In this document: in pieces, positions 1,405 to 64,000 of the stretch | Layout of the letters: every line of letters starts with the position of its first letter | How positions within the stretch are numbered: position 1 is the stretch's first letter | IMG/VR virus record: IMGVR_UViG_3300044705_000115 | Span: 1-64,000 of that record | Source of the DNA: a virus | Length of the DNA: 64,000 bases | Direction: 5' to 3' (one strand) | Translations under genes and position numbers: made by a program | Notes under the pieces: model-generated | Seen by the model: the letters and a program-made list of their open reading frames with translations, nothing else | Told to the model about the DNA's origin: nothing | Database searches by the model: none

Positions 1405-3111
1405 TTAGACCTCGCCCCGGATGAAAGCCGACATCGCGGCCGGAGCGCTGGTGTCGAAGCCGACGACATCCATGCTTCCGCTGTCGTTCGGATCGGCGAT
1501 GCTGAAATCGGTCGCGGTCATGCCGCAAACGATCAGCTTGGCGTCGATGCCCGATTTCTCGCGGTACTCGCGGAGCGCCTGCATGGGATGGATGTCGCCC
1601 GCCCACGTTTCGTTGTCGGTGTAGACGCAGAAGGCATCGACCTCGCGTTCCTCCTGCATCGCGTAGATCATCGGCAGGGCGCAGTCGGTCATGCCAACGT
1701 GACTGAGCCGGTCGAACTCGGCAGCGACATCGTTCAGCCGCATCGACGGCGTGACCGCCATCGGCGTGAAGCCCCGCTCATCCCGGTAGCCGCTGAAGTT
1801 GCCGTGACCCTGGCCAACCCCCAGCGAGTGCTTGATCCCACCGGGGATTTCGGAGCCAGCGAAGGCTACGGTCTCGTAGCGCGACTCCGAGCGAGCGGTG
1901 ACCATCGCCATGACCGCAGCGGCTTCCAGAGGAAGCAGGCCACCGAGTCCGTAGCGACCCCCAGCGTGGCGCATCGAGTTCGAGACATCGACAGCCAACA
2001 GGAACCGCTTGCCGGTCGGCTCGATGTTCTCGAAGGCCGAGTAGAAGGCGGCGTTCAGCGCATCGACGATCTGCGCCACCGGACTCCAGGTGTTGCCGCC
2101 CCGGTCGCCGTGGCCACTCTTGTACGTCATCAGCGCTGAGAGGACGGTCAGCGGGTGGACGCGAGCGCGACGGATGCGCTCACTGTCGCCGAGCTGGGCG
2201 ATCACCTTCTGGGTCGCCTCCCCGAAGGGGTCGAGCAGTCCCGAGCGCGTCATGTTGCCGAGGTTGCGGATCAACGCCGTCATCGGCATGTCCTCAAGCA
2301 GCGCCTCCTGAACCACCGGATCGGTCAGATGCTCGGAGCGGATCGCCTCACGGGGCAGCTTGTAGTCGCGGATCAGGTTCGCCGAGTTGCGCGGCGACTC
2401 CGCAACCTGGGCCATCCTGAAGCCCTCGATGACGCGCAGCACATGCGAGGGCGCGTCCAAGTCTCCGATGGGCACCGGCTTCTTGGTCGCGTTGCCGGTC
2501 ACGAACTCGAACAGTTCGGCGTGAGCGATCGACGGTGCCTTCGGATGGGCCAGCCGCAGGATGTCGCGGTGAGACCAGCCGTCGCGCTGGCGATACTTGA
2601 TGAGCTGGTAGGCCAGCTTCTCTGCGGGCCGGCCCGTGTACCAAGCGGCGACGCCGTGCCGCGCGGCCGGACCCCAGCCGCGGAACTGCTCCATGAAAGC
2701 CACGAAGTGCAGGATGTGGGTGCCGGTGCGGGCGACGCGCGGCAGGGCCTTGAAGGCGGCGCGGCGCGTCCCCTCGTCCTTGAAGGAGCAGGCCATTGCG
2801 AGGCAGAACAGCGCCGTGTCGTTGTCGCGGGCGAGGCCACGGTCGCTGACCTCGGCGATCAGCTCGACCGTGCGCTCGCCGTCCTCTGCGAGGCAGGCAT
2901 CGAGCGCCGCGACATTGCCCTTGACCATCTCGCGCTGCCCGACGTAGTAGGAGCCGCCTTCGGCGCCTAGGATCAGGAACCGGCGCAGGCGCGTCCAGAT
3001 GTCAACCTCCCAGGCGAAGCCGCCAGCGTTATTGGCGACCTGGCTCGAACCGGGGATCGGCTCGGACTGGGGGGTCTTGCGCGTCGAGTGATCGCGCAGG
3101 TAGTTGCTCAT
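1405..3111 (-). CDS. rsr: Ro60-related TROVE + vWA RNA-binding protein (Rsr)
   Basis: NNAGGFAW, RLRRFLILGAEGGSYY, KYRQRDGWSHRDILRLAHPK, MPMTALIRNLGNMT, vWA MIDAS DVSNSM, TDNETW, DVVGFD; start at ATG 3111 with GAAGGAG RBS. Confidence 0.97.
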   Translation of the reverse strand: MSNYLRDHSTRKTPQSEPIPGSSQVANNAGGFAWEVDIWTRLRRFLILGAEGGSYYVGQREMVKGNVAALDACLAEDGERTVELIAEVSDRGLARDNDTALFCLAMACSFKDEGTRRAAFKALPRVARTGTHILHFVAFMEQFRGWGPAARHGVAAWYTGRPAEKLAYQLIKYRQRDGWSHRDILRLAHPKAPSIAHAELFEFVTGNATKKPVPIGDLDAPSHVLRVIEGFRMAQVAESPRNSANLIRDYKLPREAIRSEHLTDPVVQEALLEDMPMTALIRNLGNMTRSGLLDPFGEATQKVIAQLGDSERIRRARVHPLTVLSALMTYKSGHGDRGGNTWSPVAQIVDALNAAFYSAFENIEPTGKRFLLAVDVSNSMRHAGGRYGLGGLLPLEAAAVMAMVTARSESRYETVAFAGSEIPGGIKHSLGVGQGHGNFSGYRDERGFTPMAVTPSMRLNDVAAEFDRLSHVGMTDCALPMIYAMQEEREVDAFCVYTDNETWAGDIHPMQALREYREKSGIDAKLIVCGMTATDFSIADPNDSGSMDVVGFDTSAPAAMSAFIRGEV

Positions 3112-3141
3112 CTGGGGCGCTCCTTCCGGGTCAGAGTGGAA

Positions 3142-3220
3142 GACCCGGCGAGCGGGTGATGCAGACGGGGGTGATTTTCTCCAATGAAAAGGTAACCCGC
3201 CTGCTTCGGCCCGCCGGGCC
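3142..3220 (-). ncRNA. minimal Y-RNA-like RNA (Ro-binding stem only)
   Basis: 5'/3' stem GGCCCGGCGGGC/GCUCGCCGGGUC with GGGCCGAAG-N6-GGUUAC and 3' CCCGCUC shared with the neighbouring YrlA; G-U pairs support minus strand. Confidence 0.75.
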
Positions 3221-3230
3221 AAAGCTATGT

Positions 3231-3366
3231 CGCGCTGAGCGGGATGTGCGCATCGACGTTTAGCGCTCTACCAACTGAGCTACCGCTGCCTTTCGGCGGC
3301 GGACAGGACTCGAACCTGCGACCTCTCTCTTAGCGTGAGATAACCGATCCGCTTCGGCTCAGCGCG
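3231..3366 (-). ncRNA. yrlA: YrlA-type tRNA-mimicking Y RNA
   Basis: Terminal stem CGCGCUGAGC/GCUCAGCGCG with GCCGAAG motif; permuted tRNA domain: T arm GCAGG-UUCGAGU-CCUGU, acceptor-like stem closed by GAAA, D arm GCUC-AGUUGGUA-GAGC; TATGCT -10 at 3373-3378; adjacent to rsr. Confidence 0.92.
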
Positions 3367-3380
3367 TGCGCGAGCATAGC

Positions 3381-3452
3381 GAACTCGGAGCGGGTTGGTG
3401 CCTGCGGGGTTCGTTGTCAAGGCGATAACCCGCAAACTCCGGCTCCGAGTCC
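3381..3452 (-). ncRNA. second minimal Y-RNA-like RNA
   Basis: Stem GGACUCGGAGC/GCUCCGAGUUC; GAGCCGGAG-N6-GGUUAUC and 3' CCCGCUC as in YrlA. Confidence 0.72.
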
Positions 3453-5703: not shown

Positions 5704-8700
5704 CTATCCGTCGATGCGTTTGACCCTCGTCTTGGCGTCGATCAGGCCGAGGCTGCCCGACTTGAACCCGACCAGCGTTTTGCCCTCAGGCCCAGGCCCG
5801 ACGACGGAGGCGATGGTGCCGTCTTTGTCGGTGATGACGGCGCCGGGCTCGAGTTCTTCGAGCCGGTAGTGCATGTACTTCCCTTTCGACCCCCACTTCG
5901 ATGTGTAGCCGTTGAGCTCGGAGGTCGGCACATCGTCCATCGCCTGACCAGCTTCCGCCAGCACCTTTTCGACATCGGGCGACCACTGCGACTGCAGCGC
6001 CGCCGTGGGGTCGAGCTTCTGCGTGTCTTTCAGAACCAGCGTCGATGGCAACTGGTTGAGGCTGCCCCCCTCGTCCTTGATGATCGTGTTGCCATCGACC
6101 GTGTGGGCAACGACCTCGTTGGCACCGTTCGTCGTCGTGTACTTCTCCCCCGGCTTCAGGTCGCTGACGACGAACTCGCCGGGCATTGGTTTCACGCCCG
6201 CTGCGGGTTTCGCCGGAGCCAGCGGCCAGTCGCTCGTCGTGGCGCCGGGTGGCGCTTTGTGGAAGTTGCCCTGGGCGTCCTGAAGAACCACGCCATCGAG
6301 CGATTTGGCGATGACGGTGTAGTCCTTCAAGTCGTTACCGAAGAACGTTTCGCCCTCGTGGATGCTTTCGATGTTCTCGCTGGCGAGCGCCTTCTTCAAC
6401 TCGTCATCGCCCTTCGCTGTCAGCTTCACCTTGTCGGGGATGAGCTCCGCTTTGACCGAGAACTTGGCGCCGTCGGGATCGGTCATCTCGACCACTGCGT
6501 CTTCGGGGTGCTTGCCTTTGGACGCACCGACCGTGTAGGCGTAGCCAGCGATGGTGACCTTCGTGCCGACCGGCAGTTTCCCGATCGGCGTCTCGTCGCT
6601 GTTCGGCAGCAGACCCTTGGCGGCATCTGCCTGGCCAGGGTCCGTACCCGGCCCCGGCAGCGGCCCGGTGGCGTCGTTGAAGTCGGCGGTTACGGCGCGG
6701 CCACGCAGCTTCGGGTCGGCGCTGTAGAGGAGCTGGCCGTCGGTGACGATGACATCGCCGTCGTTGGCCTTGACCTTCCACAGCTTGCCTTCTTTGCCGC
6801 GGAAGATCGTTCCCACCGGCATGTCGCCGATCTTGTCGTGGGTGTACTTGCCGCCGCTGCCGTGCTTGGAGATATACGCCTCGAAGCCACCCTCCTCGAC
6901 ATGGGAGGGCATCCCCGAACTGCTCGGCGCTGGCGACTCGGCGTGGATCGCCGGGTTCTTGCCGATGAAGGTGATCGGCTTGTCGGGGTAGCTCCAAGCC
7001 GTTTCGGAGGCGGAGAGGTGGCCGGACGGCTGCACCATCGCCACCGTCAGGTTGTCCTCCGGGCCTCCCTTGGCCTGGACTTTGAAAAGCTCCCCGCCGT
7101 CCTTGAAGTAGTCGCCCACCTCCAGGTTGCTGAGGGTCGTCGAGTCCTCGGGTTTGAGCTGGTCGTGGGGGATCGCTTTCTCGCCGAGTTCGTTCTTCGC
7201 CCACAGCTCCGTGACCTTCGCATCGTCGGGGTAAGCCGTGACATCGCCGCTGGCCAGGTTCTTGACCGGCTTCTTGCCCGGCTCAGTCGATGCATTGGGA
7301 TCGCCGAAGACGGCTTCGTAGACATTCCCGGTCCAGTCCACGAACTTGTCCCCGTGTTCGAGGTCGGCAACCTGAAGCTCGGCGCCGGGAACGTAGTCGT
7401 CAGCGCTGAACGGCGCGTCCGCTGACTTCGGCGTGTTCTTGGGCTCGTCAGGCGCCGGAGAGGCTTCGGCATCGAGCAGACGGCGCACCACCTTGGACTT
7501 GGTCGAGACCCCCGCCTCGCCCGTGTCGAGGTTCTTCCACAGCACTTTGTTGCCCTCGGTGCCGGTGACCAGATAGGGGCGCTGAGACTGGCCGCGGCCC
7601 CCGTGGAAGAGGTCGCCGACAGCGAGATCGCCGACCTTGATTTTTGAGCCGATCTTGTGCGCCTGCGGGTCGTAGAGATCAGCGAGAGCTTCGTCGTCGG
7701 GCGAGATCGCCACGACTTTGCCGCCGGACGGTTTCGCCTTGATCGTCCCATCCTTCAAGACCTTCGTGATCGTGTGCTTCTTGCCCTGATAGGGCAGCGT
7801 CATCCCTTTCTGCGGGGTGAGCTGCGGCGCAGCGACATCCTCTTCGTCGGGGACGTAGCCCTCCTTGGCGACGAGAGTCGGCGTCTTGTAGTCGGTGTTG
7901 ATCGTCCCGACTTTCCCCGTCATCAGGTCGAGAATCTGCGTCTTCGCGCCGTTGATCTGGGCTTTGACTTCGTAGGGGTTGCCGTTGACCTTGAATTTCT
8001 CCCCCTCGGCCATCTGGCCGGTGAACTTCTCGCCCGTGCCGTTCACCCAGGCGTTGGGGTCGAACAGCTCCGACTCGGCCTGCAGCTTGTGCGGGTCGGG
8101 CAGGTCGTAATGCTCGCTCAGCTTGAAGTACTGGTTCTGGCCGCCGCCCTCGAAGTTGTAGCTCTCCCCAGTGAACTTGCCGTTCTCGATCTTCACGTAG
8201 CGCAGGCCGAATCCGGTGTCGTCGCCGGGGTCCTCAACGATCAGGTAGAGCGTGCCTTTCAGCCCCATCATGTAGTCGCCGGGCTTCAGTTCCGACTCCT
8301 TGGCGACGGTCGCTTTCGGCGTGCCGTCGGCGTTCTTGAATGCCCACGGCCCCGACTTGTCGAGCTCTGCCGGAGTCCACGGCTTGCTCTGCTGCGATGG
8401 CAGCTTGTCGGCGAAGCGAGCCGAGAACTCGGCGGCCTCCGCCGGCGGGTCGATCCAGAGCTTCTGCGCCTGGCCCTGCATCTGAACATCGGGCGGCGCT
8501 GGCGGGGTCGGCAGCATCTCGCCGTTCTCGATCGCGTCGCGGAAGCGTTCGATGGTGGCGCCGCCGGAGGGCGCTTTGGTGACGCCCATCAGCCACTTTT
8601 TCTGGTTCTCGGTGATGTCGTAGAGCGAGAAGTACATCGACCGCTTGTCGATCTTGATCTGCTCCGCGACGCTGATCTCCAGCTCGCCGACGAAGTGCGT

Positions 8701-10212
8701 CTGCCCTGGGATCGGCTGCGCCGAGTAGGACGACATCAGGACATGGCGGATCGCCAGCGGCGTAGCGAGCGTGTTGTTGCCGAACTGGAAGTTGGCCCCG
8801 AAGTTGAAGCTCTGCGAGAGGCCGGACATGATCGGCTTCTTGCCGTCGATCATGGCCTGCCAGTAGCTCGGCGCGTTCGTGTTCTTGTGGAAGACCGCGA
8901 CATCCGGCGAGCGGGTGCGGTTGTAGAGGTCCCAGGCGACGATGTCTTTGTGGCGGCCCTGCAGCGCCAGCGCCAGTTTGCGCTGCTCGTCCAGCTTGCC
9001 GAGTTCGGTTTTGCCGCCCTTGAACGCCTTGAACATCGAGGCCAGCGAGAGCGTGAAGCCGCTCGACGACCCATACTGGGCGGAATAGGCGTTCTTGACG
9101 ATTGACTGGATCGTCGCCTCGTAGTCCTTGTAGCTCTCGTCGATCAAGTCCTTCGCCTTGCCCGGCGAGTATTTGCCGAATCTCTGCATCAGCTCGGCGT
9201 AATGCTCCTGATCGACCGAGCCGAAGCGCTGCCACTCCTCCGGCTTGATCTTCGAGTGGGCGGGGATCGCGATGGAAGGGTCATGGGTCGTCGGATCGAC
9301 GTAGGGATCGACGGTCGCCACGCCGGATTCGATGCCCTTGGCCTTGTCCGATTTCAGAGCTACCGGCTTGCCCTCCTTCTTGGCGTCAGCGATGAACGCC
9401 TTGCCGCCCTCAAGGGAAGGGCTGAAGACGCCGGTTTCCGCGTCTTTGAAGCTCTTGCCGATGCGGTTGGCGATGACCTTCCCGCCCGCAAGGTGGGCGA
9501 CCTGCCACTCCTTGCCGTCTCCCGAGATGAAGGTCTCGCCGACCTTGATGAACTCGCCCGCCTTCGGCGTCCCTTTCGGCCAGCGGGGGTGCAGGGTCGG
9601 GTCCCACTTGCCCTCCATCAGCGCCTCCGCGAGGCTGGCGGCGGCGCTGCCGCCGAGGGCGAAGCTGTATCGGTCGCCCCCCCAGGCGAGCGTCACGCGC
9701 GAGAACGCGACCGGGATCGGCTTCTCGATATTCGGTCGCCGGCGGGCGTAGTCGAGCGTCATGTGCGGCGTGAAGCCGTGGTCGCGGCTCGGCGGCAGGC
9801 CCGCCTGGTCGAGCGTATCGACGAGTTCCTGCCGCAGCGGAGGGAGGTCGGGAAGATCGACCGAGAGGTAGGTGACCGGCCCAGCGATGAACTGACCGAC
9901 GCCGCTGATCTCTCCGCGCATCTCTTCCGGGCACTTCGCGGCCCAGGTCGCTACGACTCGCAGCGCGTCTTTGAGGTCGAGATCAGCGGCCTTCCCGAGG
10001 AACGCGAGCGTCACATGGAGTTCATCGGCGTCCTCGCCGTCGGCGATGGCCAGCTCGGCCGCCGTGGCGGCGTCGGGGAAGAGAGCGACCATCGCGCCTT
10101 GCTTGGTCGCCGCCGTCGCGGCCTCCATAAGGGAAGCGGCAGCGGTGTCAGCGAGCAGTTCGTCGGGGTCGCCGTCAGCCTCGACCGGCTCGAAGACAGG
10201 TTCGCGCAGCAC
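5704..10212 (-). CDS. giant (~1500 aa) multidomain protein: 2H phosphoesterase + possible ART-like domain + SH3/KOW-like repeats
   Basis: HVTL and HMTL HxT motifs; WDPTLHPRWPKGTPKAGEF; about nine (D/E/N)L..GD.F-type repeats; start GTG 7 nt after TACCCT. Confidence 0.85.
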   Translation of the reverse strand: MLREPVFEPVEADGDPDELLADTAAASLMEAATAATKQGAMVALFPDAATAAELAIADGEDADELHVTLAFLGKAADLDLKDALRVVATWAAKCPEEMRGEISGVGQFIAGPVTYLSVDLPDLPPLRQELVDTLDQAGLPPSRDHGFTPHMTLDYARRRPNIEKPIPVAFSRVTLAWGGDRYSFALGGSAAASLAEALMEGKWDPTLHPRWPKGTPKAGEFIKVGETFISGDGKEWQVAHLAGGKVIANRIGKSFKDAETGVFSPSLEGGKAFIADAKKEGKPVALKSDKAKGIESGVATVDPYVDPTTHDPSIAIPAHSKIKPEEWQRFGSVDQEHYAELMQRFGKYSPGKAKDLIDESYKDYEATIQSIVKNAYSAQYGSSSGFTLSLASMFKAFKGGKTELGKLDEQRKLALALQGRHKDIVAWDLYNRTRSPDVAVFHKNTNAPSYWQAMIDGKKPIMSGLSQSFNFGANFQFGNNTLATPLAIRHVLMSSYSAQPIPGQTHFVGELEISVAEQIKIDKRSMYFSLYDITENQKKWLMGVTKAPSGGATIERFRDAIENGEMLPTPPAPPDVQMQGQAQKLWIDPPAEAAEFSARFADKLPSQQSKPWTPAELDKSGPWAFKNADGTPKATVAKESELKPGDYMMGLKGTLYLIVEDPGDDTGFGLRYVKIENGKFTGESYNFEGGGQNQYFKLSEHYDLPDPHKLQAESELFDPNAWVNGTGEKFTGQMAEGEKFKVNGNPYEVKAQINGAKTQILDLMTGKVGTINTDYKTPTLVAKEGYVPDEEDVAAPQLTPQKGMTLPYQGKKHTITKVLKDGTIKAKPSGGKVVAISPDDEALADLYDPQAHKIGSKIKVGDLAVGDLFHGGRGQSQRPYLVTGTEGNKVLWKNLDTGEAGVSTKSKVVRRLLDAEASPAPDEPKNTPKSADAPFSADDYVPGAELQVADLEHGDKFVDWTGNVYEAVFGDPNASTEPGKKPVKNLASGDVTAYPDDAKVTELWAKNELGEKAIPHDQLKPEDSTTLSNLEVGDYFKDGGELFKVQAKGGPEDNLTVAMVQPSGHLSASETAWSYPDKPITFIGKNPAIHAESPAPSSSGMPSHVEEGGFEAYISKHGSGGKYTHDKIGDMPVGTIFRGKEGKLWKVKANDGDVIVTDGQLLYSADPKLRGRAVTADFNDATGPLPGPGTDPGQADAAKGLLPNSDETPIGKLPVGTKVTIAGYAYTVGASKGKHPEDAVVEMTDPDGAKFSVKAELIPDKVKLTAKGDDELKKALASENIESIHEGETFFGNDLKDYTVIAKSLDGVVLQDAQGNFHKAPPGATTSDWPLAPAKPAAGVKPMPGEFVVSDLKPGEKYTTTNGANEVVAHTVDGNTIIKDEGGSLNQLPSTLVLKDTQKLDPTAALQSQWSPDVEKVLAEAGQAMDDVPTSELNGYTSKWGSKGKYMHYRLEELEPGAVITDKDGTIASVVGPGPEGKTLVGFKSGSLGLIDAKTRVKRIDG

Positions 10213-10228
10213 GCGAGGAAGGGTAGGG

Positions 10229-10411
10229 CTAGAGGCGGCTGATCTGAATCGACTCGCCGCACTTGATGCACGTAACGGCCCCAGCGCCGCGAGATTTGGC
10301 TGTCGCAAGCACCGCCTCTGAGACTGCGTGACGACCTCCCTCCGCGCACTCCAGGCTGTCCGCCTTCATGCCCTGCTGCTTCAGCGAGACTCCCGGTCCT
10401 TCGGCTTTCAT
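10229..10411 (-). CDS. small Zn-binding hypothetical protein
   Basis: C/H and CxxC motifs; GGAGAG RBS. Confidence 0.55.
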   Translation of the reverse strand: MKAEGPGVSLKQQGMKADSLECAEGGRHAVSEAVLATAKSRGAGAVTCIKCGESIQISRL

Positions 10412-15312: not shown

Positions 15313-15383
15313 CGAGGGACCAGGGAATCGAACCCCGACAGTGCGGCTTTGGAGACCGACCGGCACAACCTACGCTGTCCCCC
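15313..15383 (-). tRNA. tRNA-Trp(CCA), reduced D arm
   Basis: GGGGGAC/GTCCCTC acceptor, loop CTCCAAA, T arm CGGGG-TTCGATT-CCCTG. Confidence 0.75.
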
Positions 15384-51072: not shown

Positions 51073-51545
51073 GGCTCGGCCAGCGATGGCAGGGAGCGCC
51101 ACCAGCGCAGATGGACATCGGGGACGGACGTATAGCCCCAGAAGGTTCCCGTCTCGGTCGGGATCGCCGGAACCATGAAGCCGATCTGGTCGGTGCGAGC
51201 GAAGTAGCCGGGGATCATCCCGTCATCGTCGATCCCCATCACATCCTTGCTTTCGCGCTCGCCGGCGCAGCGGGCGCACAGAAGAGTCTGCTCATCGGCG
51301 AAGGTCTGGAACTCGCGCCAGAGCTTCACCCCCTCCTCTCCGCATCCCTCGCAGGCGTAGGGAATCCGCCTCTTGGAGCCCGTGCCGCCGCACCCGCCAC
51401 AGGTGACGAAGCCAGCTCGCTGCCCGCTGACGCTGATCATCAGCGTGCCGTAGCCCTCGCATCCAGGGCATTGCTCGTCGCCGTCGAGTTGGCGCTGCCG
51501 AGCCAGCTCATCGGCCTTCCATTTGATCTCCGGTGGGATCGACAT
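51057..51545 (-). CDS. Zn-finger hypothetical protein
   Basis: CxxCxGxG pairs; GVKLWREFQTF..LLC..DQIG..VPAIP..FWGYTSVP..WW..LP. Confidence 0.8.
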   Translation of the reverse strand: MSIPPEIKWKADELARQRQLDGDEQCPGCEGYGTLMISVSGQRAGFVTCGGCGGTGSKRRIPYACEGCGEEGVKLWREFQTFADEQTLLCARCAGERESKDVMGIDDDGMIPGYFARTDQIGFMVPAIPTETGTFWGYTSVPDVHLRWWRSLPSLAEPCEGC

Positions 51546-51550
51546 CGCTC

Positions 51551-51575
51551 CTCCTTGGTCGGGAAGGCGAGCCTA
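51551..51575 (-). promoter_or_regulatory. -10 (TAGGCT) + CCGACCAAGGAG leader motif
   Basis: Exact motif 51551-51562. Confidence 0.7.
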
Positions 51576-51583
51576 GAAGATGA

Positions 51584-51805
51584 GGCGCCCGGCCGCTAGC
51601 CACACGGCGACCTCCGGCTTGACGGGGCGGGTCTCGGTACCGAGATACCCCGCACCGCACCGACGCTCTTTTGAAGCCCTCCCCGGACTACGGACGGGGG
51701 TTGGTGTTTCCCCGCACCGCCTCGAGGCAACTGCTGTCGGCCCTCCGTTGCCAGAGGCCGCAGCCGGATCAGTGAAGCTTCGTTGGCGTACTGAGCTACG
51801 GGCGC
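51584..51805 (-). ncRNA. 222-nt tRNA-scaffold RNA with 124-nt D-loop and 40-nt anticodon-loop expansions
   Basis: GCGCCCG/CGGGCGC acceptor, UA, GCUC/GAGC D stem, G26, UCGGU/GCCGG stem, AGGUC variable loop, GCCGU/GCGGC T stem with 7-nt loop; starts 2 nt after tRNA-Gly. Confidence 0.7.
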
Positions 51806-51807
51806 AG

Positions 51808-51880
51808 AGCGGTCGACGAGACTCGAACTCGCTACCTCCACCTTGGAAGGGTGGCGTCGCTCCTGTGCGACCTCGACCGC
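51808..51880 (-). tRNA. tRNA-Gly(TCC)
   Basis: GCGGTCG/CGACCGC, loop CTTCCAA, GTTCGAG. Confidence 0.88.
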
Positions 51881-51980
51881 GAGACGGCTCGCCGAGCCGC
51901 CGCGTCTTCGAGTCCGAGGAGGATTCGATGAGAGAGGCGACGGCTGCGGTCCGCCATGCGGCGAGACTACCAGCGCCGAG

Positions 51981-52802
51981 CTACAGCGGGTAGGCCCGGC
52001 TCCCGCCTTCCTTCTGGATCGGTGGCCGACTGCGAAGGCGGGCGGTCTTGCGCAGGCGTTTGGCCAGCGCGTAGGCGACGCCACCCCAGCGGTCGGTTCC
52101 CGGCGTCCCGAAAATCTCGGCTTCGCCCTGGGCCTGCCGCAGCGCTTTTGCGGGCACCACAGCCGTCAGCCGTTTCCACTGGGCGGGCGTGAGGTCGAGG
52201 TCGTAGTCGTCGCGCACGAGCAGGCCCAGCGCCCTGATCCAGTGCGAGGTATTGGCTTTCGGGTCCTCGCGCCAGTGCGTGTTCAGCGTCAGCGTGCGGC
52301 GGAGCTCGTCGGGGCCGAGCATCTGGTAGATGCCGTCGAGCGCGTTGACGGTTTCGATCCGGTGGTAGGGCTTGCCCTTGGAGAGTTTGCCGATCTCGAA
52401 GTTCAGCCCCTCTGTGATGGCCTTGATCTCGACGGCGACCGGCTCCTTCATCTTCACCCGCTCGAGGAAATGCTCCAGCGGCGAGACGCGCCGGCGGTCG
52501 CGGTCGATGGCGAGCTTCAGCGCCGCCTTTTCCTGAACGGAGCGAACCTCCGAGTGGACATCGCAGCGCCACTCCTTGACGCCGCGGGCTTTCCCCGCGA
52601 GGAAGCGATGGCGGCCGTCGATGATGCCGTACTTCGGGAAACCGTCCTTGCTCGGCAGCGGCGCCACCACCAGGACGACGACATAGGAGGGATTCCAGTT
52701 CTCGATCATCTGATCGACGCGCCGCTCCTCCAGCGTGTGGTCGATCTGGACGTCTGGGTCAGGGATCAACTGCTCGGTAGGGAGAACCCGCAACGAAGGC
52801 AT
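51981..52802 (-). CDS. ParB/Srx-like (DUF6551-like) protein
   Basis: DPDVQ..RV..M..NWNP, IIDGRHR, EKAALKL..RRRVSPLEHF. Confidence 0.75.
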   Translation of the reverse strand: MPSLRVLPTEQLIPDPDVQIDHTLEERRVDQMIENWNPSYVVVLVVAPLPSKDGFPKYGIIDGRHRFLAGKARGVKEWRCDVHSEVRSVQEKAALKLAIDRDRRRVSPLEHFLERVKMKEPVAVEIKAITEGLNFEIGKLSKGKPYHRIETVNALDGIYQMLGPDELRRTLTLNTHWREDPKANTSHWIRALGLLVRDDYDLDLTPAQWKRLTAVVPAKALRQAQGEAEIFGTPGTDRWGGVAYALAKRLRKTARLRSRPPIQKEGGSRAYPL

Positions 52803-63941: not shown

Positions 63942-64000
63942 GCGTCCGTAGCTCAGATCGGTTAGAGGCACGGCAACGTGTCCAGAGCGTCGCCCTTTCA
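63942..64000 (+). tRNA. 5' half of a tRNA-like gene (anticodon probably TTC) with a hairpin inserted in the D loop; truncated by window end
   Basis: GCGTCCG-TA-GCTC-[AGATCGGTTAGA-GGCACG-GCAA-CGTGTC-CA]-GAGC-G-TCGCC-CTTTCA. Confidence 0.6.

Follow-up and report, generated by a model that had tools for sequence, protein, structure and literature searches.

The stretch of DNA analysed in this work (the window) comprises positions 1 to 64,000 of the IMG/VR virus record IMGVR_UViG_3300044705_000115 (130,043 bp, direct terminal repeats, about 65% G+C) and carries on its minus strand an RNA element of 222 nucleotides (nt), hereafter E222, which retains the complete frame of a transfer RNA (tRNA) and has no anticodon. 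The comparative analysis suggests that E222 is a derivative of a five-armed tRNA-Glu(UUC) typical of the Solirubrobacterales and not, in function, a member of that family. As E222 is unable to read codons, it is therefore seen here as a stable tRNA-shaped scaffold, and we propose that it is a functional, non-decoding tRNA mimic in which the tRNA frame is used for processing and stability, a reading about which we are evenly divided. Among the readings advanced in a preliminary description of this DNA, that of a tRNA-scaffolded non-coding RNA is the best supported, E222 appearing as a remodelled tRNA unable to decode and having look-alikes in other phages.

Structure and Identity of E222

The four stems of E222 (7, 4, 5, and 5 bp) lie at the spacing of a canonical tRNA, U8A9 and G26 are in place, and the discriminator position is occupied by a C (51584); the coordinates of the parts are reported in Table 1. 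The loops depart from those of a tRNA. The D loop (51792-51669) is 124 nt long, begins with AGUACGCCAAC, and is devoid of G18G19; when the cloverleaf is enforced, its 7-bp base stem encloses a GCAA-capped hairpin (51764-51733) and a second hairpin (51727-51681). An insert of 40 nt (51658-51619) replaces the 7-nt anticodon loop, leaving neither U33 nor an anticodon, and in the same enforced cloverleaf the whole arm forms an irregular helix of about 19 bp, which is capped by GUAC and interrupted by a GUA bulge on the 5' side, a CAA bulge on the 3' side, and a single 1x1 mismatch. The T loop reads GUGGCUA, not the conserved UUCRANY; the T54-Psi55-C56 signature, on which the translation and modification machinery relies, is absent. 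The preliminary description had listed the cloverleaf elements at canonical spacing, the long structured D loop, the extended stem with 3-nt bulges in place of the anticodon loop, and the altered T loop; our parse of the minus strand recovered all of them (21 of 21 stem pairs and the variable loop AGGUC included), the D-loop domain being that of the constrained fold.

Compared with a canonical tRNA, E222 has the frame and lacks the anticodon loop, the UUCRANY T loop, G18G19, and a score with the Rfam tRNA model. Indeed, RF00005 (gathering threshold 29 bits) gave no match at 51584-51805 even at E up to 10, and ARAGORN was silent on E222 both with and without its intron mode. An Rfam scan, which the preliminary description had named as a check, returned no family for E222 at the gathering threshold in the window or at E up to 10 in 51400-52000, barring a sub-threshold match to YrlA (RF02553). 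This match scored 15.9 bits against a threshold of 69 bits, and its alignment (51773-51840) spans the T arm of the neighbouring tRNA-Gly and the 5' end of E222; it is an artefact, because two adjacent tRNA-like genes are joined in it. A transfer-messenger RNA (tmRNA) was rejected, with no ARAGORN or Rfam call and with pair 3-70 being G-C and not G3.U70, and so was a group I intron, for which no Rfam match was obtained at E up to 10 in 51400-52000. The remark that E222 does not match the layouts of tmRNA, YrlA, and group I introns is thus borne out in all three cases.

E222 is not protein-coding: the overlapping open reading frames (ORFs) on both strands have no Pfam or PHROG match, and there is no coding signal. 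It is also not a repeat or a mobile insert, as a repeat search found its 222 nt in a single copy in the phage genome, and a blastn search of E222 and its flanks against cultured phages returned as sole match 50 nt of tRNA-Gly.

Descent from a Five-Armed tRNA-Glu(UUC)

A pattern made from the shared D-arm letters was scanned over viral contigs, metagenome contigs, and species genomes, and at least 229 matches were parsed. One family of five-armed tRNAs accounts for 195 of 229 among the matches listed (metagenome and genome loci); its layout is GCGCCCGUAGCUCAG-UGGUCAAC-(6-bp hairpin)-AAA-GAGCG-UCGGU-CUUUCAA-GCCGA-AGGUC-(T arm)-CGGGCGC-A, and its 6-bp D-loop hairpin shows covariation among 28 distinct sequences. 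Among the matches listed, the genome records harboring this tRNA are almost all metagenome-assembled genomes (MAGs) of Solirubrobacterales and other Thermoleophilia, and the gene lies in a conserved chromosomal context (lysS, a beta-lactamase-like gene, and an SDR gene). A search with RF00005 of one complete Solirubrobacterales chromosome (G003) yielded 47 tRNAs, 46 of them distinct, which include a canonical tRNA-Glu(CUC) and no canonical tRNA-Glu(UUC); the only UUC anticodon among the 46 belongs to a 96-nt gene (G003:C1:2090369-2090464). The parent tRNA would thus be the only GAA reader in the one complete chromosome of this order that was examined. GAA codons align with Glu in 82 LysRS orthologues (1538 E vs 148 R); therefore, the code is standard and the five-armed tRNA most likely reads GAA. 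The body of this tRNA(UUC) is close to that of tRNA-Arg(ACG). A literature search found no paper on a five-armed tRNA-Glu(UUC).

The phage possesses its own copy of this tRNA, P96, which starts with GCG(Y)CCGUAGCUCAG as E222 does and has the anticodon loop CUUUCAA (UUC), a canonical T loop, and a D loop of 30 nt holding a GCAA-capped hairpin. Judging from these letters, P96 is a working-looking, decoding-type copy of the Solirubrobacterales tRNA-Glu(UUC), and the ARAGORN call of Arg-acg for it is judged a miscall. This bears on the statement of the preliminary description that tRNA-Arg is missing: the statement holds within the window, whereas there are four tRNA-Arg calls at 63.9-65.5 kb of the genome, one of which is the miscalled P96. 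E222 also has an Arg-like body (GCGCCCGUAGCUCAG ... AGAGCGUCGGU ... AGGUC ... CGGGCGC), and the resemblance of its 5' end to tRNA-Arg, noticed at the outset, finds an explanation in the descent from an Arg-like-bodied tRNA-Glu(UUC).

The evidence for this descent comes from the comparison of E222 with the host-order tRNA. Outside the T arm, 39 of the 41 core positions of E222 are identical to it, including the whole acceptor stem, the D stem, G26, the variable loop, and nine of the ten anticodon-stem letters; P96 and E222 differ at six of the same 41 positions, and the D-stem letters are the same in E222, in P96, in the host-order tRNA, and in the phage element L005 described below. The added parts also sit where the parent has its own. 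The base stem of the E222 D-loop domain begins right after ..CAAC, at the site of the 6-bp hairpin of the host tRNA and of the GCAA-capped hairpin of P96 (the three-way domain being present in the constrained fold only), and the last letters of the anticodon insert, ..GUCAA, correspond in position to the UUCAA at the end of the host loop. The T arm is different: 10 of its 17 positions are changed, compared with 2 of 41 elsewhere (Fisher p 1.8e-5), all five T-stem pairs being kept and pairs 51-63 and 53-61 being altered on both sides. The changes of E222 cluster in the anticodon loop, in the fifth arm, and in the T arm together with the 5' part of the D loop, a pattern that looks like remodelling rather than uniform decay. 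Hence, while the host tRNA-Glu(UUC) has a CUUUCAA loop, discriminator A, an 18-nt D-loop hairpin, and a canonical T loop, E222 has no such anticodon loop, discriminator C, a domain of about 110 nt in the D loop, a T arm changed at 10 of 17 positions, and no G18G19. E222 is informative since its parent is identifiable: the anticodon loop appears sealed and extended, the fifth arm enlarged, and the elbow re-paired, the rest being the same.

The relationship was also examined with a covariance model, R1, which was built without E222 since a MAFFT alignment including it misaligned its middle. The 3' 83 nt of E222 score 26.5 bits with R1, for which E is 2.5e-4 when the 130-kb genome is searched and 7.8e-7 for 401 nt; part of the register of this alignment is spurious. 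The model is unable to bridge the 124-nt insert, and the 5' 47 nt reach 7.3 bits. Because the core outside the T arm is nearly identical to a real tRNA family and because R1 matches, the comparison indicates that E222 is more than a chance cloverleaf, homology and not folding energy being decisive.

Since the parent tRNA is typical of the Solirubrobacterales/Thermoleophilia, the host of the phage probably belongs to this group, and E222 thereby gives a clue to the likely host of a soil phage of 130 kb that is uncultured. This is in agreement with the finding that the phage gene for Ro60 is closest to those of actinobacteriophages (45% identity). An earlier idea of a haloarchaeal virus with bulge-helix-bulge introns, which arose from a weak DUF7573 match (18.4 vs 30.2 bits), was dropped because the Ro60 relatives are those of actinobacteriophages and the tRNA is of the Solirubrobacterales type.

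Six further loci (L090, L233, L136, L158, L118, and L113) carry tRNAs with Arg-like bodies, enlarged hairpin-bearing D loops, and varied anticodon loops, among them UUCCUAA (CCU; an Acidobacteriota MAG and metagenome), UUCGUAA, UUCGCAA, and CUACCGG.

Anticodon-Less Look-Alikes in Other Phages

The first pattern scan of viral contigs returned 18 matching stretches, two of which are tRNA-framed. One of these two, L005, which we regard as an independent second case of the remodelling seen in E222, is a 93-nt anticodon-less element in the complete 78.6-kb record of a soil phage (G001) that has one tRNA, no TROVE match, and only about seven ORF matches with the E222 phage. L005 shares with E222 the frame, the D stem, a D-loop hairpin, the absence of an anticodon loop, and the variable loop AGGUC. 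With a T loop AUGGCAG and a D loop that starts with AGAUGCCC, it has the T-loop UGGC and the D-loop GCC in common with E222. On the other hand, L005 differs from E222 in having a GGAA tetraloop placed directly on the anticodon stem, a D loop of 31 nt, G3.U70, and an encoded CCA. Compensated changes distinguish the two at acceptor pair 2, anticodon pairs 30-40 and 31-39, and T-stem pair 49-65. L005 lies antisense between two protein genes as a stand-alone unit, with a TAGCCC box before it and CCA after it. In both elements, U55-G56-G57-C58 in the T loop and G-C-C in the D loop would allow the pairs G18.U55 and a swapped C19-G56, or else a short GCC/GGC helix.

The other look-alikes, of four kinds and located in viral contigs except for one metagenome relative, are sealed with GNRA caps and have D loops spanning 6 to 63 nt. 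L007 (L007:1730-1843) has 114 nt, a GAAA cap, a D loop of 49 nt, its own terminator, and 47.6% G+C; its record has no TROVE match, and a metagenome relative (L164:1042-1154) keeps the D-loop hairpin through a compensated change. L424 (L424:1547-1671), on a 340-kb contig, has 125 nt, a GCAA cap, and a D loop of 63 nt. The small ones are L427/L428 (L427:3600-3670), of 71 nt with a GAAA cap and an encoded ACCA, and L429 (L429:390-459), of 70 nt with a GUAA cap and G3.U70. The Rfam tRNA model accepts L427 and L429 (56.8 and 47.6 bits), which ARAGORN labels "tRNA-???", and Rfam gave no match for L005 and L007 at E up to 1. Blastn against cultured phages yielded no match for L424 and, for L427, only generic tRNA-Phe similarity in nine records. 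As judged from these loci, tRNA look-alikes with no anticodon are a recurrent feature of phages, and some of them possess a promoter or a terminator of their own.

A literature search found no paper on E222 or on GNRA-sealed phage tRNA look-alikes. PMC10690425 has supplementary tables with 10,006 candidate viral RNAs, some of them tRNA-like, among which there may be relatives.

Is E222 Functional?

Several observations weigh against a functional E222, and we report them together. The first set concerns folding. The minimum free energy (MFE) structure of E222 has -110.4 kcal/mol, compared with -103.9 for the enforced cloverleaf, which is thus 6.5 kcal/mol dearer, and it retains the acceptor stem only; in the unconstrained ensemble the acceptor pairs reach at least 0.93, and the D, anticodon, and T stems range from 0.001 to 0.06 (D stem 0.001). 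For E222 as a whole the folding z value is -1.75, and 9 of 200 shuffles do equally well; it is -1.55 for the D domain (16 of 200) and -2.47 for the anticodon arm (50 nt, -27 kcal/mol; 4 of 200), the last also being rated weak. The cloverleaf is thus not given by thermodynamics alone.

The second set concerns relatives. No orthologue of E222 was found, so that its two inserts have no comparative or covariation support, and this is the weakest point of the proposal. At 20 viral loci encoding relatives (at most 55% identity) of the 162-aa protein whose gene follows E222, no E222-like element lies upstream. A second element of the E222 type was likewise missing from the results of four additional pattern scans of viral contigs, and apart from L005 the matches of three viral scans (4, 41, and 25 stretches) have no tRNA frame; the exact anticodon arm of the P96 type had no phage copy in the viral-contig pattern scan. 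In 401 host-order genomes a pattern scan gave 26 matches in 23 genomes, none in a tRNA context, and a reversed-pattern control gave 18, which is the background. Moreover, the look-alikes were found by patterns fixing the Arg-like letters AGAGCGUCG of E222, so that the D-stem and anticodon-stem letters that they share are shared by construction. The core is so nearly identical to the host tRNA that E222 may also be a recent copy, and therefore the intact stems outside the T arm are no evidence of selection.

Thirdly, no partner emerges. The genes neighbouring E222 gave no informative family; no match to PolyA_pol/CCA-adding enzyme, RtcB, GluRS, or Pth families was found in the phage genome; and the genes common to the phages of E222 and L005 encode an SNF2 helicase, a DUF6166 protein, and an HTH protein.

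The findings on folding and on relatives fit the main alternative, namely that E222 is a dead paralogue, which arose when two insertions and T-loop mutations disabled a copy of the five-armed tRNA-Glu and which is now decaying without function. E222 is a singleton, the decoding copy P96 makes it dispensable for translation, and a recent event could have left the stems intact by default, as the 39 of 41 identical core positions might indicate. Nevertheless, uniform decay would not focus the changes on the T arm, with two doubly compensated pairs and none broken, and the same T-loop UGGC and D-loop GCC are present in L005, which belongs to an unrelated phage. Furthermore, both inserts are helical continuations of existing arms and not disruptions, and look-alikes with a sealed anticodon recur in phages, in some cases as units with signals of their own. 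On these grounds we consider a dead paralogue unlikely, even if it is the alternative that deserves most attention.

According to a second alternative, E222 might act only in cis, with no role in trans: at the tRNA-Gly unit and its boundary with the next gene, the tRNA-shaped structure would direct processing, punctuate the transcript, protect its 3' end, or terminate it. It does end a short RNA unit, directly before a TAnnnT box and a CCGACCAAGGAGG leader, and the lack of an intrinsic terminator nearby on the minus strand would leave a stable structure to mark the 3' end. However, 222 nt with two elaborate domains far exceed what RNase P punctuation or end protection would need, L005 (antisense to its neighbours) and L007 (with its terminator) are stand-alone genes, and the downstream gene has its own promoter-like box; a purely cis-acting E222 is, in our opinion, improbable.

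A third alternative considers E222 as a second ligand of the Ro60/Rsr protein encoded by this phage, similar to a Y RNA and offering its long bulged anticodon helix as the Ro-binding stem. PMC4201824 describes bacterial Y RNAs as mimics of tRNAs, and YrlA resembles E222 in being non-decoding, in having a tRNA-like module, and in carrying a long helix at the site of the anticodon arm. Yet YrlA is circularly permuted, ends in a long stem, and adjoins rsr, whereas E222 ends in an acceptor stem and lies 48 kb from rsr, its YrlA score being the adjacency artefact mentioned above. In addition, a YrlA-like module and a Y/stem-bulge-like match already lie beside rsr (about 3250-3451), and TROVE has no match in the records of L005 and L007, all of which makes this alternative very improbable.

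The last possibility, also raised in the preliminary description, is that of a genuine tRNA gene with two non-canonical introns, spliced to a decoding tRNA of about 75 nt; it is hardly credible. In its favour are the complete frame and the 3' end of the anticodon insert (..GUCAA), which is similar to the 3' part of the host loop CUUUCAA. On the other side, Rfam returned neither a group I intron nor any other family at E up to 10, no bulge-helix-bulge motif is formed (the 3-nt bulges lying about ten positions apart and not 4 bp), the host group is bacterial, no excision yields a 7-nt loop with U33, and the T loop lacks UUCRA and the D loop GG. Known group I introns have about 200 nt or more, and the inserts of 124 and 40 nt are below this size. 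A bulge-helix-bulge intron was also rejected as a candidate on its own: 4 bp, a 1x1 mismatch, and another 5 bp lie between the CAA and GUA bulges, and the related tRNA is bacterial.

Possible Mechanism of a Non-Decoding Mimic

If E222 is a functional mimic, it would fold into an L shape, the elbow being held by the D-loop G-C-C and the T-loop G-G-C, either through a swapped 19-56 pair or through a 3-bp loop-loop helix. In the mechanism that we prefer, E222 would then compete for a factor recognising the five-armed tRNA-Glu by its body; such a factor might be a tRNA-targeting defence nuclease or an enzyme of tRNA processing, modification, or charging. We prefer a decoy because the body-defining parts of the parent are kept and the contacts for decoding and for the ribosome and modification machinery are removed; still, this is the least supported part of the proposed mechanism, and we put it forward as doubtful. 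More specifically, and just as tentatively, E222 might be an uncleavable decoy whose sealed anticodon arm and enlarged fifth arm block the factor, for example a defence nuclease that halts the translation of GAA codons, while P96 would keep GAA translation going. As a further option, E222 might present its two added domains to a partner.

If the decoy idea were correct, E222 and L005 would be the first members of an RNA-based counter-defence built on a tRNA scaffold with a re-paired elbow (19-56 changed from G-C to C-G). More generally, if such mimics are decoys for tRNA-directed immunity or for tRNA enzymes, the "tRNA-???" and pseudo-tRNA calls in phage genomes would gain a function.

Comparison with Known tRNA-Like RNAs

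The kind of molecule to which E222 would belong, a phage tRNA-like RNA that does not decode, is already known. The RNAC and RNAD genes of phage T4 lie within the T4 tRNA cluster. In PMC9697503, T4 RNAC and RNAD are called "RNAs of yet unknown functions". The closest case is represented by the tRNA-like stable RNAs of phage T5. RNA1 of T5 (NC_005859.1, 30501-30644, 144 nt), which lies in the tRNA cluster and is annotated as "tRNA-like stable RNA with unknown functions", folds with a closing stem, a canonical T arm (UUCAACU loop), and a large extra arm. E222 resembles it in being a phage RNA of more than 100 nt among tRNA genes and in combining an acceptor-type closing stem with a T arm and a large additional arm, and, as far as RNAs of the T5 RNA1 type are defined by a phage-encoded tRNA frame with no usable anticodon beside a tRNA gene, E222 has all of these traits. 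The two differ in the T loop, which is canonical in RNA1, and are unrelated in sequence (T5 RNA1 scores 8 bits with R1); moreover, RNA1 is an observed stable RNA, whereas E222 is a predicted one. Given this precedent, the "new class" of the preliminary description is too strong a term. What is new in E222 is the variant: it is the largest such element found here, it has an identifiable lineage-specific parent, and its proposed re-paired elbow is shared with one other phage element.

An engineered counterpart also exists, the "tRNA scaffold", in which a recombinant RNA is expressed inside the anticodon stem. Both have a foreign helix on the anticodon stem of an otherwise intact frame, with processing by tRNA enzymes and stability; the engineered scaffold is, however, a laboratory design, while E222 is natural and has in addition a D-loop domain and an altered T loop.

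Genomic Context and Biogenesis

ARAGORN finds 26 tRNA genes across the phage genome, 21 of them inside the window, and E222 directly follows one of them, tRNA-Gly(UCC). The gap is 2 nt by the covariance-model ends (51808-51880), as had been reported in the preliminary description, and 1 nt by ARAGORN (51807), and falls within the spacings of 1-15 nt seen by ARAGORN in the tRNA arrays of this phage. The two genes are probably co-transcribed. A candidate -10 box, TAGTCT, stands about 85 nt ahead of tRNA-Gly, where it directly follows the stop codon of a ParB-like gene; a scan for the sigma-70 consensus found nothing at this box. No intrinsic terminator was found near E222 on the minus strand. 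The next gene encodes the 162-aa protein (ATG at 51545) and has its own promoter-like box, and this TAGGCT box with its leader would mark the end of the tRNA-Gly/E222 RNA unit.

Based on this arrangement, E222 would be co-transcribed with tRNA-Gly(UCC) from a TAnnnT-type promoter, RNase P would cut at G1 of E222, leaving a 2-nt trailer on tRNA-Gly, and the 3' end would be trimmed and provided with CCA by host enzymes, to which this last step is assigned because the phage has no match to the PolyA_pol family. The sequencing runs listed with the E222 stretch are two soil DNA runs, from which the record may itself derive, and no RNA run.

Table 1. Positions in the window of E222, its parts, and the associated features.
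Feature	Position	Strand	Basis
E222, tRNA-framed RNA, 222 nt	51584..51805	-	Parsed sequence, 21/21 stem pairs, R1 matches
E222 acceptor stem, GCGCCCG/CGGGCGC	51799..51805 with 51585-51591	-	7/7 pairs, same as in the host-order tRNA
E222 D arm, GCUC (51796-51793)/GAGC (51668-51665)	51665..51796	-	4/4 pairs
E222 D-loop domain, base stem GAAGCUU (51781-51775)/GGGCUUC (51679-51673)	51673..51781	-	Constrained fold and sub-fold
E222 extended anticodon arm, UCGGU (51663-51659)/GCCGG (51618-51614)	51614..51663	-	5/5 pairs, two of them G.U
E222 variable loop AGGUC (51613-51609) and T arm GCCGU-GUGGCUA-GCGGC (51608-51592)	51592..51613	-	T stem 5/5 pairs
tRNA-Gly(UCC), directly upstream of E222	51807..51880	-	ARAGORN; Rfam 31.5 bits; R1 50.9 bits
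TAGTCT, candidate -10 box for the tRNA-Gly and E222 transcript	51964..51969	-	Inferred; TAnnnT type
TAGGCT box (51575-51570) and leader CCGACCAAGGAGG (51562-51550)	51550..51575	-	Directly after E222; belongs to the next gene
P96, 96-nt five-armed tRNA, 63942-64037 (first 59 nt in the window)	63942..64000	+	R1 85 bits

The ParB-like gene upstream of the tRNA-Gly/E222 unit (51981-52802, minus strand) matches a partition family (phrog_1033, 6.9e-8). The exact 13-nt leader occurs before start codons in 16 copies in the phage genome, with a TAnnnT box 10-15 nt upstream. In the window its sites include 232, 5342, 21181, 26076, 29538, and 34121, as well as 36234, 45781, 51562, 56036, and 58795, all on the minus strand; the boxes before it read TAGGCT, TAGCCT, TAGTCT, and the like, as in a repeated promoter-plus-leader module.

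Ro60 Region and Other Features of the Window

A degenerate tRNA-Trp-like gene is a candidate at 15313-15383 (minus strand), beside a tRNA-Met/Pro/Phe cluster. It has the acceptor GGGGGAC/GUCCCUC, the loop CUCCAAA, and the T arm CGGGGUUCGAUUCCCUG, was missed by ARAGORN and Rfam, and is matched by R1 with 19.5 bits (E 0.016).

The Ro60/Rsr protein of the phage is encoded at 1405-3222 on the minus strand (TROVE 6.5e-37, vWA_Ro60 1.1e-56). Upstream of it, at about 3250-3370 on the same strand, lies a YrlA-like permuted tRNA module consisting of a T arm, a closed acceptor hairpin, and GUAGCUCAGUUGGUAGAGC, for which the YrlA model of Rfam remained below threshold. Next to Ro60 there is also, at 3383-3451 (minus strand), a match of 40.4 bits against a threshold of 38 to RF01656, a nematode small RNA family that we take to comprise stem-bulge, Y-RNA-related RNAs. 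Further along the minus strand (5704-10308) is encoded a protein of 1534 aa with an N-terminal 2'-5' RNA ligase/LigT-like domain (4.1e-11); the presence of this domain together with Ro60 suggests an RNA repair or quality-control module.

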